From Eledone cirrhosa (Eukaryota), in assembly GCA_964016885.1 (NCBI GenBank), contig CAXHJY010000913.1:15281-79280 (forward strand): a DNA stretch of 64,000 nucleotides, written 5' to 3'. The translations under genes and the position numbers were made by a program. Below the pieces are notes generated by a model. That model was not told the origin of the DNA and ran no database searches. It saw nothing but the letters and a program-made list of their open reading frames with translations. This document shows, piece by piece, positions 3,255 through 51,396 of the stretch (the first letter of the stretch is position 1; every line of letters begins with the position of its first letter).

Positions 3255-3512
3255 TAATCGAAGACATTGATGAAAGAGAAGCCAGTCGTTAAAATATATT
3301 TATAAGAAGCTCTTACACATGTTACGCTCAAGAGGGTCTCTTCAGAGGCACACAAGGAAATAAAGGATTTAATAGGGATTTACATGGTTCCTTATTAAAT
3401 CCTTTATTTCCTTGTGTGCCTCGGAAGAGCCCTTCTTGGGCGTAACAGGTGTAAGTGCTTCTTATAAATATATTTTAACGGCTTGCTTCTCTTTCATCAA
3501 TTTCTTCGATTA
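3255..3512. mobile_element. 258-bp imperfect palindrome with a decayed hammerhead-like motif in each arm
   Basis: Arms 3255-3378 and 3389-3512 are reverse complements with scattered mismatches; + arm reads GCCT-CGGAAGA-GCCC ttctt GGGC-GTAA-CAGGTG-TA; abuts (CA)n. Confidence 0.75.
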
Positions 3513-3980
3513 CACACACACACACACGCGCGCACGCACGCACGCACGCATGCACGCACGCACGCGCGCGACTGATTGTCAACGTAATGCAGATCTCGGA
3601 CACGAGTCTTTCGTAAACTTTGACCTATTGTAACCCAGAGCAAAGCAGAGCTAATTATTCCTAATATTGCCCGTAGCCGCTTCACGTGGGAAACTCCACT
3701 GATATACAGACAGACAGACTAATAACACGTAGAGAATGGAAAACTAGTACTACTACTACCACCACCACTACTACTACTACTACCACCACACCACCACCAC
3801 CACCACACCTACTACTACTACTACAACTACTACTACTACTACTACGGATTAGTTCAAGGCAACATATTCAGATGAGCAGCAAACGGTTGATTACATTTAT
3901 CCTACAGATACTTTATTATCCAGCGGAATATTTCCTCTTCACTACAATGAAAAGGATAGGAACCGATCGTGAAATCGGAG

Positions 3981-4600
3981 CAAGGAAACTATGTTTCTAT
4001 TGATCTTTCCATTGCTGATACTGTCTTTAAATCAAGGAAACTATTATGTTTCTATTGGTCTTTCCATTGCTGATACTGTCTGTCTTCAGATCAGACCAAG
4101 GAAACTATGTTTCTATTGGTCTCTCCATTGCTGATACTGTCTGTCTTCAGATCAGACCAAGGAAACTATGTTTCTATTGGTCTCTCCATTGCTGATACTG
4201 TCTGTCTTCAGATCAGACCAAGGAAACTATGTTTCTATTGGTCTCTCCATTGCTGATACTGTCTGTCTTCAGATCAGACCAAGGAAACTATGTTTCTATT
4301 GGACTCTCCATTGCTGATACTGTCTGTCTTCAGATCAGACCAAGGAAACTATGTTTCTATTGGTCTCTCCATTGCTGATACTGTCTGTCTTCAGATCAGA
4401 CCAAGGAAACTATGTTTCTATTGGTCTCTCCATTGCTGATACTGTCTGTCTTCAGATCAGACCAAGGAAACTATGTTTCTATTGGACTCTCCATTGCTGA
4501 TACTGTCTGTCTTCAGATCAGACCAAGGAAACTATGTTTCTATTGGACTCTCCATTGCTGATTCTGTCTCTCGTAATATCAGACCAAGGAAACTATGTAT
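3981..4600. repeat. 61-bp minisatellite, ~10 copies
   Basis: Unit CAAGGAAACTATGTTTCTATTGGTCTCTCCATTGCTGATACTGTCTGTCTTCAGATCAGAC; internal copies nearly identical, ends degenerate. Confidence 0.95.
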
Positions 4601-4639
4601 TAGTCTTATAAATGCTAATACTATCTGTCAGTTACAAAT

Positions 4640-4764
4640 CCTGGCAGAAGGAGCAACGTAAAAATAAAGTAATTTGTTGTAAAACAAAATGCGCCGCTCG
4701 TCCCAGGAATCGAACCTTACGATCGTGAGGTTAATGCCGTAACAACTAGACCACGTGCCTTCAC
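4640..4764 (-). mobile_element. tRNA-derived SINE head with CORE-like segment (family B)
   Basis: Reverse complement has GGCACGTGGTCTAGTTG (A box) and GGTTCGATTCCTGG (B box); homologous to 58828-58965. Confidence 0.65.
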
Positions 4765-48019: not shown

Positions 48020-48330
48020 ATGTGCATAGAATCAGCATGTTGATTACTTTCAACCACGAAGACAAAAACAGAGATTTTGGACCATGTACTAGATGACTCC
48101 TGCTTATCAAATTAATATGGATGTGGCTGAGTATTTCATATTCACATCTACTCATAACGTGGCCCTCGGGGAGATTCAGCATGACGCAATGTGTGACATG
48201 GCTAGCCCTTTGAAATACAACTTATTTTTGCCACCTGAGTGGACTAGAGCAACGTTAAAAAGGATCGAACTGGTAATCTTTTGATCTTTATATCAACTCT
48301 CTAACCACTACGCTATGTACTTTCACACAT
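48020..48330 (-). mobile_element. Decayed SINE-like interspersed repeat (family C); related fragments near 1040-1150, 13240-13380, 13870-14070, 38750-38930 and 58490-58620
   Basis: Shared CTCGGGGAGATTCAGCATGAC...TGTGACATGGCTAGCCCTTTGAAATACA motif (reverse complement at ~38830-38880); tRNA-head remnant near 48300-48325. Confidence 0.5.
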
Positions 48331-49020
48331 CTGTCACTCAAATAAAAAATGGATCACCCAAATAAAAAATTGATCCATCAAATAAAAAAATAGCAAATTG
48401 TGACTGAAGAAACGCCGGACACTCTGTCCAACTTTAAAACATTTGTAGACACGAAGACACGTACACACATACACATAGACATACACATACATGTGGAAAA
48501 AGAAAGAGCATGCATGCGTGAGTGTGTGTATGTTTGATCACGTGTGCATGTAAAAGAAACTGGATAAAAGGACAAAGAGATGTTCTGATGACATCTTAAT
48601 GGTGCTTGCCAAAGATTTATAAGTATTTTCACAAGAGAACTAATCTCATCGGGGAACAAAAAAATAAATAAATAAATAAAATATTATCCAGTCCACCACA
48701 TGGCTCATTTTCCTTTTAAAAGCTTGGATCGTTTTCAAGTGATAGCAAATGGCGTTACTGGAGTGTAAGCCCTGGGTTTTTTTGACATGTGCGTAGGAAT
48801 TTTTGATAGGAAGAGCTATTTGTATCAACACACACACATACACACGGACGCACACACACACACACGCACGCACGCACATATATATATATATATATGTGTG
48901 TGTGTAATATACGAGCTTTATGGAAAATGGGAGTAAGTGGTGAGAATTGAGTTTGTCAGTCTGTGTGCATGTGTATGTATGTACGTACGTATGTATGTGT
49001 GTGTGTATATATATATATAT

Positions 49021-49167
49021 ATAGGAACGAGTAGGACCCCGACGGCTGAGCTCAAGCCGTTTCGACGGATAATTCTGGACGTTCCTATTACCCACTCTAC
49101 TACCCTAAGTATTGAGTACTTTGGTGCGTTATTGTCCACCTGGTTCCTTACCACATTTCCTTCGTTA
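49021..49167 (+). mobile_element. Family H module with an internal deletion at the inversion junction
   Basis: Antisense arm 49021-49080 joined directly to GTTCCTATTACCC...; flanked by (TA)n. Confidence 0.85.
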
Positions 49168-51305
49168 TATATATATGGCGGGGGAACCACGAAAGTAGGA
49201 CTAGAAACTCCAATCTCATGCTTCTCATTGATAACTTCGTTCGTTTTGTTGACTGAACAGGAGTCTACAAATATTTTTTCGGCAGTTTCAATTATATATA
49301 GAGATATTTCTACTTTATGCTCTAGCAATACTTAAAAATATTTCTTTTGAATAAATTTTCTAATTTAGCTACATATTGAGTCTAAATACTTCTTCTGAAG
49401 CGGCGCACCATGAGTTAAAACTAAAAAAAAAAATAGTTTGAGTAGCAAAGCTAACGAAAGATGTTAGGGGTATAGTGAGTTTTGTTGAAACAGGAGTAGA
49501 TTATAAATAACGATTTAGTAGAAGACTACAAAGAAAGAAGCTGCTATATAATGTTCCACTTGCGTGATTATTCCCCTTTTATTTTGCATTTTCCCTCCTA
49601 TTTGGCACCGTTTCAACTTCTCTCTTTCCATCTCTGTATGTGTACCACATGTATCACTACTACTACTACTACTACTACTACTACTACTACTACTACTACT
49701 ACTACTACTACTTCTTCTTCTTTTCCTTTTTTCTTCTTCTTAACCTCTTACTTTTTCCTTACCCCTCCCTCGCCCCTCTCCTCTTTCTCCTACTTGAATA
49801 AAATGCATCAGTGTTGCTTCTGAGTCTTTACCTTCTGGTGTTCAAATCTCATCATGATTAATCTCATTTTAATTCAAGGAAAAAGAGTCCTGTTATTGAA
49901 CACGCTAGCTGCTAGGGCATTTTTATAATATGGCGCAGCCTTGTTTCATGTTGTTTGGAGATTATTCTCCAAATGTTGCGGACTAATTGCATTTTCCAAA
50001 ACCATCTCCAGATGGAAGAGGCTGTTATTCATGTATCATAGTCACCCACATAGTATAGTATAAGGTTTACATTTCAAGATCTCGCATAATACCATATTAA
50101 CTTTGAACATCGCGTAAGAACTGGCATTGCAAGATATCATATCTGACGAAAAGTCTAGTAAACCTACTAGTAATCATAGGTTAACATTTAAGCATAATAC
50201 TTCTCTCTACAACTTTGGATTGCCTAACACCCGTATATATATATATATATGTGTGTGTGTGTGTGTGTGTGTGTGTGTGTCTGTGTGTGTGTGTGTGTGT
50301 GTGTGTGTGTGTGTGTGTGTGTGTGTGTGTAAATGTTCCCAGTGTGGAAAACTGGTGCAGAGGTTTATGGTAATTAGTAAAAACCCGACGAACGGCACAT
50401 TCAGTTTCGGTTGGCCTCATTTTGGGTAACGAATATAAGTTCAAAGCAAGCTTAAATTTAGTGGTCTTTTTTATGGGGTGTTTATTAATTTTATTCACAC
50501 ACCCACACACTCACATGCGTAACATAAAATATATATGTGTGTACATTTCCGACCAATTAGATAATTACGCATTTAAAACCTTATCTCTAACACAACACAC
50601 GTTCCAGTAATTTCATTACTCATATTGGTAGTATTATTTCTTCCCTGGGGTGTATTTTTTAGCCGTTTGTCCTGACGTAGATAGCAGAATTACCTTCTGA
50701 TTCACACAACACTCATTTTACTCTTCCTGTTATTACTTAAGTGTCGGTGCTCCTTCGCAAACTCTTTGTATAGAAGTAGATTTAATACATTTGAAATACA
50801 ACACATGGTAAAAACCTTGTTCTGATTATTCGGGTTTTGTCTTTTATCAGATTGTTATGGTGTATATCTCTATACAAGGCTGGTGACTGAGAATTTAGTG
50901 CCTTAGGCTAACCCTAAAATATGCGTTCCCTTTTCCCAGTTATACACCCATTATCCTTAATATAACTTTCAGTTTGAAATTTCGCCAAGCATATGATCCT
51001 AGTGTTTGACACTTCTTGCTTTGACCACGCTAAGGATACTACTAGGAATATATCTTCCACCACAGAGGCCACATCATGTGACAAGACTCTGTATTGCTTT
51101 GGGTCTTTCTTCTACACTGCTACAATGTAAACATGTTTAGTGATTTATTCATTGATTACAAGAAATTATGTGTATATTTACTTTATACAAATGTGTCTTA
51201 AAATAGGAATATTTAAGATACACCTCCATGATGTTTGTTCCTTAGGTGGCTACCTAGCTGATATTTTATATATATATATATATATATATATATATTAAGG
51301 AAACT

Positions 51306-51396
51306 ACGAGTCTGATGAGCTATCGATTTCAGAGTTGGGCACGATCGATACAGATTGTAACTTGAGTTAATCGATCGCAAAACACGCGTCACACGT
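51306..51396 (+). ncRNA. Hammerhead motif with long stem II and GAAA>AAAA core change (probably inactive)
   Basis: ACGAGU-CUGAUGA-GCuAUCGAUU...AAUCGAUcGC-AAAA-CACGCG-UC-ACACGU; next to (TA)n at 51267-51295. Confidence 0.65.

Follow-up and report, generated by a model that had tools for sequence, protein, structure and literature searches.

Hammerhead ribozyme motifs at (TA)n microsatellites of Eledone cirrhosa as probable 3' ends of truncated Hydra-clade Penelope-like elements

Hammerhead motifs in the window and across the genome

The stretch of Eledone cirrhosa DNA analysed here (the window: 64,000 nucleotides of contig CAXHJY010000913.1, assembly GCA_964016885.1, positions 15,281 to 79,280 of the forward strand) has 33.5% GC and is dense in (TA)n and (CA)n, with (TA)n alone making up 11% of it, and it holds many small elements with hammerhead ribozyme motifs. 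A preliminary description took these for a class of short non-coding ribozyme cassettes, targeted to microsatellites and mobilised by the proteins of Penelope-like elements (PLEs). We consider it very probable that the motifs are instead the 3' ends of 5'-truncated PLEs of the Hydra clade and of their non-coding derivatives, whose fold-back forms likely arose by priming on both strands of a (TA)n from two fixed internal starts. Such truncated Hydra PLE ends and non-coding derivatives are an element class that is already known.

The descriptor used was that of the type I hammerhead (min-HHR), with a U.U permitted at 10.1-11.1. The motifs have the core boxes, stems I to III and palindromic stem III of minimal type I hammerheads, with a hairpin stem III in place of the bare palindrome in families B, D and J (families are described below). 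Eight matches were found in the window, at 7815-7880, 16909-16991, 25209-25263 and 33645-33702 on the minus strand and at 10518-10563, 25306-25360, 31442-31502 and 32214-32264 on the plus strand, against a mean of 0.12 and a maximum of 2 in 50 block dinucleotide shuffles. The sites named in the preliminary description are all present: the descriptor recovered its five intact-core folds and the 25209/25306 pair, adding one match absent from its list (31442-31502, plus strand), and the sites at 3418, 6150, 19141, 39048, 42220, 45709, 49021 and 51306 belong to families with the whole fold in other genomic copies, so that those described as truncated or decayed are real. An Rfam scan of the window gave no hammerhead among the best 150 of 537 matches, which were to microsatellite and hairpin microRNA (miRNA) models only, all below the cut-off.

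The hammerhead density of the window is ordinary for this 3.0-Gb genome. A sample of 39 stretches of 10 kb at preset positions (about 390 kb; the unbiased set) gave 40 descriptor matches against 0 to 2 in 10 shuffles, of which 38 remained after removal of two chance-like matches (L035) and 24 after further removal of 14 copies in tandem arrays. Leaving arrays aside, the estimate for the whole genome is 1.8 x 10^5 motifs (bootstrap 0.9-3.0 x 10^5), and with arrays included it is 2.9 x 10^5; searches of the genome with each family returned hundreds to thousands of candidate copies. The earlier claim of a dense population thus stands in relation to shuffled sequence, but with 24 to 38 motifs per 390 kb of random DNA there is nothing special to the window.

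One array in the random sample (L046:245-3387) is retrozyme-like, with 11 copies of a 310-bp unit and a minimal hammerhead in each, and an array related to it, with an inverted copy, lies at L069:8866-9571. In the window itself, a tandem repeat at 4061-4516 has a 61-bp unit with CUGAAGA and GAAA and no hammerhead stems under the descriptor. The U.U that replaces the 10.1-11.1 pair recurs in the unrelated families D, E and F and in L046 and L053.

Enrichment at microsatellites, as had been proposed, is indicated by several counts. Within 100 bp of a (TA)5+ lie 6 of the 8 window matches (null 0.21) and 15 of the 24 non-array matches of the random sample (null 0.14), and a (TA)4 begins within 15 nt after the 3' end of 49 of 60 elements, compared with 3.7% of random points. 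The ends of a short interspersed nuclear element (SINE)-like control lay next to (TA)n in 8 of 69 and 1 of 53 cases.

Families and their parent elements

The genome was searched with each family and the flanks of the copies were read, family B being traced with its upstream part as query. Within families the 5' ends of copies vary and the 3' ends are shared. Two 3' ends are fixed in every family: a short one (S), 50-120 nt after the core start, and a tailed one (T), a further 74-147 nt on. The sites of the preliminary description fall into nine families (A, B, C1, C2, D, E, F, G and H), and three further families (A2, I and J) were found. Its view that the families are unrelated in sequence does not hold for C1 and C2, which have stems I and III in common and reverse transcriptases (RTs) that are 60% identical. 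Six of the nine lead to coding PLEs, four directly (A, B, C1 and C2), G by way of one locus and D by way of a sister subfamily; their 3' untranslated parts measure 0.65-1.5 kb.

Family A, with 1461 candidates, has two copies (L031, L032) in which an untranslated stretch of about 1.3 kb leads upstream to a GIY-YIG frame. Its intact window hammerhead (7815-7880) belongs to a truncated, short-ended copy at 7770-7990 on the minus strand, which pairs tail to tail with an arm at 7472-7573 on the plus strand, broken inside stem III at a (TA)n. The pair encloses a tailed 3' fragment of family J (7610-7733, plus strand) that the preliminary description had missed; a second piece of J lies at 33311-33427 on the minus strand. 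Also missed was a tailed copy of family A2 (31401-31639, plus strand), whose core reads CUGAUAA where other copies have CUGAUGA.

Family B has four copies in the window. A fold-back at 39047-39248, with a short arm on the minus and a tailed arm on the plus strand, is broken in stem II and has no 5' core, and the 5' core is likewise missing from the fold-back at 42220-42465, which occupies both strands, and from a single tailed arm at 45705-45839 (minus strand). At 49021-49165 a short arm (minus strand) is joined to a tail-only arm (plus strand). Longer copies elsewhere contain the whole ribozyme, with a U3-A8 core, and have RT and GIY-YIG upstream in the same orientation (L163, L165). Beside the first of these copies lies a further unlisted element, a tailed 3' fragment of family I that begins in stem III (39273-39412, plus strand), and the 42220 element adjoins a 136-bp palindrome of another family (42552-42687).

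An RT/GIY-YIG open reading frame (ORF) lies upstream, in the same orientation, of family C1 in L166 and L167 and of family C2 in L225. The window copy of C1 (10415-10608, plus strand; intact core at 10518-10563) is truncated and short-ended and is flanked by (TA)n at either side; three copies had suggested that the 5' end of this family is fixed, which 30 loci refuted. C2 is represented by a fold-back (25072-25406; tailed arm minus, short arm plus) with the same core change in both arms. The variant core reported at 25209/25306 is thus present, but it is specific to this insertion, the family core being CUGAAGA. In family G the variant core, GUAA for GAAA, is family-wide (GUAA in 14 of 15 loci, GAAA in none); its window copy is a fold-back at 3086-3510, tailed on the minus and short on the plus strand, and the endonuclease (EN) part of a GIY-YIG frame lies upstream in L312 only.

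Family D has in the window a 3' half only (stem III, cut site and 3' strand of stem I), short-ended and followed by (CA)n (6150-6187, plus strand), a related remnant with a diverged inverted tail and a hammerhead 3' half (19045-19204, plus strand; 3' half at 19160-19204), and a short-ended copy with a whole hammerhead (32202-32269, plus strand; hammerhead at 32214-32264) that has an inverted tail-end stub of about 13 nt at its 5' side. The sister subfamily, D', differs by compensatory changes in stem I and extends upstream, and its tail continues unbroken into the start of an ORF (L308). An apparent upstream body of D in L089 was really another family joined head to head, and the ORF-to-hammerhead connection in L309, being interrupted, was left out of account.

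Families E and F are non-autonomous PLEs, with a pseudo-long terminal repeat (pLTR) and a tail, no coding capacity, and a unit found at several loci. The E unit (1376 bp) and the F unit (1920 bp) are each in partial tandem and common to three loci, their longest sense frames are 101 and 98 aa, and neither gave a tblastn match to 11 PLE protein pieces. In the window, E is a 5'-truncated copy at 16854-17872 (minus strand; hammerhead at 16909-16991), and F a fold-back at 33450-33798 with a tailed arm on the minus strand, containing the whole hammerhead at 33645-33702, and a short partial arm on the plus strand. Family H is older and about 150 nt long (83-89% identity between the loci that were read), and most of its 15 loci begin at one fixed point some 20 nt ahead of the core. 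Its decayed window copy (51295-51410, plus strand) is altered in the core, as first described, but its loss of the G of GAAA is local, the G being kept in 10 of 15 family loci. No PLE protein remnant was found in the window.

The coding parents share the features of one PLE clade. Hydra elements are defined by RW[KR], DKT rather than DKG, a CxCX5C linker, CxxC before E, and CxH; nearly all their families target (TA)n and bear hammerheads, and the supplement lists Hydra-1_Obim of Octopus bimaculoides with a (TA)n preference and a hammerhead (PMC8557442). Here, RT followed by a C-terminal GIY-YIG was seen in the B, C1, C2 and D' frames, the A and G frames being visible only from the thumb or EN onward and thus too short for RWK and DKT. 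RW[KR] is present in C2 and D', DKT in B, C1, C2 and D', and DKG in none; among 31 long homologs of another Hydra-type frame in the same genome, DKT occurs in 31 and DKG in 0. The CxCX5C linker was found in A, B, C1 and D', CxxC before E in these four and G, and CxH in A, B, C1 and C2, and by eye the interval from the GIY-like to the YIG strand has a single Cys, CCHH being absent. The hammerhead lies near the 3' end, with a pLTR or partial tandem, as in Hydra elements. These motifs, rather than a tree, suggest that the parents belong to the Hydra clade. Neptune and Nematis were rejected, as the CX2-5CxxC linker, CCHH in the EN and DKG were not found, and so was Naiad, which has an N-terminal EN and no canonical hammerhead, whereas here the EN is C-terminal and hammerheads are whole.

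Most of the mini-elements therefore appear to be 5'-truncated PLE ends and not a new class. An origin from PLEs and mobilisation by their RT/GIY-YIG protein, as first proposed, agree with the coding parents reached from six of nine families; these same six largely bear out the caveat, entered in advance, that the families might simply be the truncated ends of known PLEs.

Other PLE lineages lie among the Hydra copies in L168-L170 and L222, where (TA)n tracts are pile-up sites for several element families; L170 holds a Poseidon-like frame of 789 aa. A further (TA)n-targeted family, K (L227, L228, L236, L241-L256), is possibly Naiad-like: one of its arms has a tail of about 35 nt, and no hammerhead was seen close to the end of the element. 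In two loci it forms a head-to-head fusion with family D, each with a single tail.

Fold-back pairs and the tail hairpin

Among all fetched loci, 104 distinct head-to-head pairs were found. Of these, 88 join an S to a T arm, 11 an S arm to a partial tail, 4 two T arms and 1 a T arm to a partial tail, and none joins two S arms. As S and T arms occur in roughly equal numbers, independent joining would make about half of the pairs S+T. In the unbiased set the combination was S+T in 18 of 18 pairs. Either arm may reach further 5' (39 vs 19 pairs), the arms diverge by 3-10% and have unequal ends, and in 12 of 99 pairs (2 of them ambiguous) the T arm consists of tail only and has nothing in common with the S arm. 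In family B the break points concentrate in the hairpin of stem II, 42-58 nt from the start of the core, so that the first half of the core is lost. Automated pairing over seven references found no mixed-family pair, and mixed-family junctions in L014, L227 and L228 were not counted as evidence of two templates, as later deletions between neighbours are possible. The earlier statement that most sites are long inverted repeats fared less well, since only 6 of 14 window sites have a long self-complementary match and the 7815 site is a tail-to-tail pair around a foreign fragment.

The S+T rule and the tail-only arms favour priming on both strands over snap-back. Snap-back self-priming of one cDNA or antisense template, with endonuclease trimming of one end (Arkhipova, 2013; Craig, 2021), is fairly unlikely here. 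It likewise predicts a tail on one arm, an arrangement reported earlier together with the proposal of self-priming (PMC3846280, PMC8557442), and it would fit the clustering of breaks at hairpins and the private changes common to both arms, as at 25209/25306 and in the 60 of 80 pairs whose arms are closer to one another than to other copies. However, a tail-only arm has no sequence in common with its short arm and so is not its copy, and the longer arm can be either one; together these require a second priming event. The resemblance of arms then means that both cDNAs usually came from one RNA or source, or that the arms were homogenised later.

Priming on both strands has a biochemical model in a Poseidon PLE, which in vitro cuts and extends both strands, with two internal starts that bound its tail, is predicted to form dimers and works without ribozyme cleavage (PMC11167929). 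By analogy, the element protein would cut both strands of a (TA)n, and an RT/EN dimer would bind its RNA at a conserved bulged hairpin that separates the two ends. A cDNA would start at each end, one per DNA strand, both usually stopping early, and the cDNA 3' ends would join head to head through microhomology, often at ribozyme helices (stem II in family B). The hammerhead would be found in nearly every stub because it adjoins the start sites. Its role in the parent element would be to process tandem precursor RNA, dimerising through the palindromic stem III, and most stubs would be inert.

The bulged hairpin begins 5 to 14 nt after the short end in 11 of 11 families and has the boxes RCTC (5') and GAGY (3') enclosing an inner helix whose length varies, with a bulge of 2 nt on the 3' side just ahead of GAGY. 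With one copy taken per family (the family A copy having 1 pair, where the family mean is 2.5), inner pairs sum to 38 with a 2-nt bulge and to 0, 0, 1 and 4 with bulges of 0, 1, 3 and 4 nt. Of 177 tailed copies from seven families, 144 keep both boxes, and in G and J the boxes change together from ACTC/GAGT to GCTC/GAGC. A simple hairpin pattern, which misses many copies, occurred 15 times in the random sample against 0 to 3 in 8 shuffles and 3 times in the window against 0 to 1. By eye, the hairpin is also present in the published Hydra-2_Amil, Hydra-1_Ajap and Hydra-2_Ajap consensuses (coral and sea cucumber) and imperfectly in that of Hydra-1_Crog, while the Hydra-1_Obim consensus stops before a tail; no description of it was found in the literature searched, including the available parts of PMC8557442. 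Its position and conservation suggest a protein-binding element. We regard it as an evenly balanced question whether the hairpin docks a dimeric RT/EN and so sets one start per strand, with the fold-backs a record of two-strand priming in some 10^5 copies, trans mobilisation of E, F and H possible, and a source of double-stranded RNA (dsRNA). If so, the hairpin alone may suffice for the mobilisation of E, F and H in trans, and the genome would hold a genome-wide source of 100-250-bp dsRNA hairpins. As a small candidate for the binding element, it lends itself to mutation in an existing in vitro assay.

The view of the preliminary description, in which dedicated short non-coding ribozyme cassettes spread as such and are mobilised in trans, seems to us unlikely. 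It draws on the E and F units, which are non-coding and common to several loci, on the fixed 5' end of H, on short D copies with repeated breaks at the start of stem I and few recurring junction types, and on the 310-bp array of L046 in the random sample. Against this, six of nine families trace to coding PLEs, E and F measure 1.4-1.9 kb and are truncated in the window, arm length varies continuously, and the repeated junctions fall at microhomologies. What stands of the non-coding class is therefore E and F, both kb-sized, and as a short cassette possibly H alone.

Several observations weigh against the origin of the motifs from truncated Hydra-clade ends by two-strand priming, in addition to the motif basis of the clade assignment. 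Pfam gave no RT match for the B and C1 frames and GIY-YIG only at E 0.004, below the cut-off. None of the families yielded an intact, full-length assembled element, and the ORFs seen are broken. The short-stemmed subfamily of D had no shared upstream body in 30 loci, no parent of H appeared in 15 loci, and the tracing of parents covered the nine families of the preliminary description. Most loci studied were the best matches to family queries and not a random draw. As to the fold-backs, the resemblance of arms in 60 of 80 pairs also fits an arm copied from the other, only 10 of 122 short-ended single arms have an opposite stub, most having none that is detectable, and the biochemistry of two-strand priming comes from Poseidon, which is another clade than Hydra.

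Ribozyme state, host effects and known systems

Most copies probably cannot cut, since half the core is missing or the copy is locked in a hairpin. In the unbiased set, arms reach the 5' half of the core in 3 of 30 cases in family B and 3 of 15 in family D, and in the 25165-25404 fold-back the forcing of stem I is predicted to cost 88 kcal/mol, where a single arm incurs no cost. Minimal hammerheads are inactive as monomers and of low activity as dimers (PMC4209133), and in vitro PLE ribozymes act weakly and depend on dimers or protein (PMC4209133, PMC11167929). In the fold-back the long hairpin is predicted to win over the ribozyme fold by that same margin. The suggestion that these elements could cut any transcript running through the locus is thus poorly supported, whereas the accompanying suggestion of possible dsRNA hairpins may be kept. 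Long dsRNA hairpins in read-through transcripts would be a more plausible effect on the host than cutting. Retention of the motifs by the host to cut or regulate such transcripts is very unlikely: about 2 x 10^5 whole-looking motifs exist genome-wide and hairpins of 100-250 bp could be dsRNA substrates, but the motifs decay freely, with core changes at 25209/25306, 31442 and 51306, the core is absent from most B and D arms and buried in fold-backs, and the 123 of 145 candidate window frames that were scanned included no convincing host exon. Chance motifs in AT-rich DNA, or palindromes made by assembly, can be practically dismissed in spite of the window's low GC and (TA)n content, given eight matches against 0.12 in shuffles, hundreds to thousands of candidate copies per family, the divergence and unequal ends of the arms, and short-read contigs of one sample, possibly the source sample, that repeat both ends and the fold-back joints of family B.

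The window contains other features besides these elements. A SINE-like repeat of about 190 bp at 728-906 recurs in at least 15 further places, 85-97% alike (for example 14736-15149, 30860-31055, 51401-51989 and 63358-63553). Reverse transcriptase fragments of a long interspersed nuclear element lie at 40015-41413 (RVT_1, E 3.5e-08), interrupted by (TA)n tracts, and there is an inverted duplication of 591 bp, 96% identical, at 27036-27619 and 34376-34965, and a degenerate (TA)n array of about 3.6 kb at 59700-63300. A Pfam Ig-like match at 38556-38741 (minus strand) was dropped, as no Ig motif is present.

What these results add is the near-strict pairing of a short with a tailed end, the tail-only arms and the tail hairpin, which bear on how PLEs make inverted, tailed insertions. 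The hammerhead count is among the largest per base that we found in print. The elements also offer natural core variants for assay (U3-A8, GUAA, and U.U at 10.1-11.1) and kb-sized non-autonomous PLEs, and they carry a warning, in that such stubs resemble miniature inverted-repeat transposable elements or miRNA hairpins to annotation tools.

No dedicated study was found in the literature on octopus and hammerhead ribozymes, and the closest known system is the Hydra clade, including Hydra-1_Obim (PMC8557442). It has the same C-terminal GIY-YIG, RW[KR], DKT, CxCX5C, CxxC and CxH, the same (TA)n targets, 3' hammerhead and inverted 5'-truncated arms, and the same tail at one end. In its available text that work lists one Octopus family, as against at least six coding and two non-coding families here with about 10^5 stubs, and tails of 30-40 nt for Naiad and Penelope, as against 74-147 nt here. 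A search for six short family motifs in the available part of its supplement gave no match, although line breaks could mask one. Poseidon PAc in vitro (PMC11167929) is alike in its two internal starts that bound the tail, AT-rich cuts, extension of both strands and dispensable ribozyme, but it belongs to another clade and its starts lie in an AC-rich stem-loop inside the ORF, and no analysis of fold-back products was found in the available text.

Non-LTR retrozymes (PMC7229834; bioRxiv 10.64898/2026.07.22.740005) are similarly non-coding, with a type I hammerhead, and are derived from or mobilised by PLEs. However, they form direct tandem arrays of 150-450 bp, whereas the window holds dispersed truncated ends or head-to-head pairs, and the E and F units, in partial tandem, measure 1.4-1.9 kb against tandem units of 150-450 bp (PMC7229834); none of the window sites is a direct tandem array with a hammerhead in each unit. 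Retrozymes of the axolotl reach up to 120,000 copies (PMC7229834). Finally, the minimal type I hammerheads of metazoan PLEs (PMC4209133) share with ours the palindromic stem III, the short stem I and the many families per genome, and they too are mostly single motifs from truncated PLEs, with opposite-strand pairs 100-700 bp apart. The U3-A8 core variant of family B is known among them, whereas the U.U at 10.1-11.1 of several families and the GUAA for GAAA of family G set these apart, and the maximum reported there, about 9,000 in Xenopus, compares with our estimate of 1.8 x 10^5 (0.9-3.0) outside arrays.

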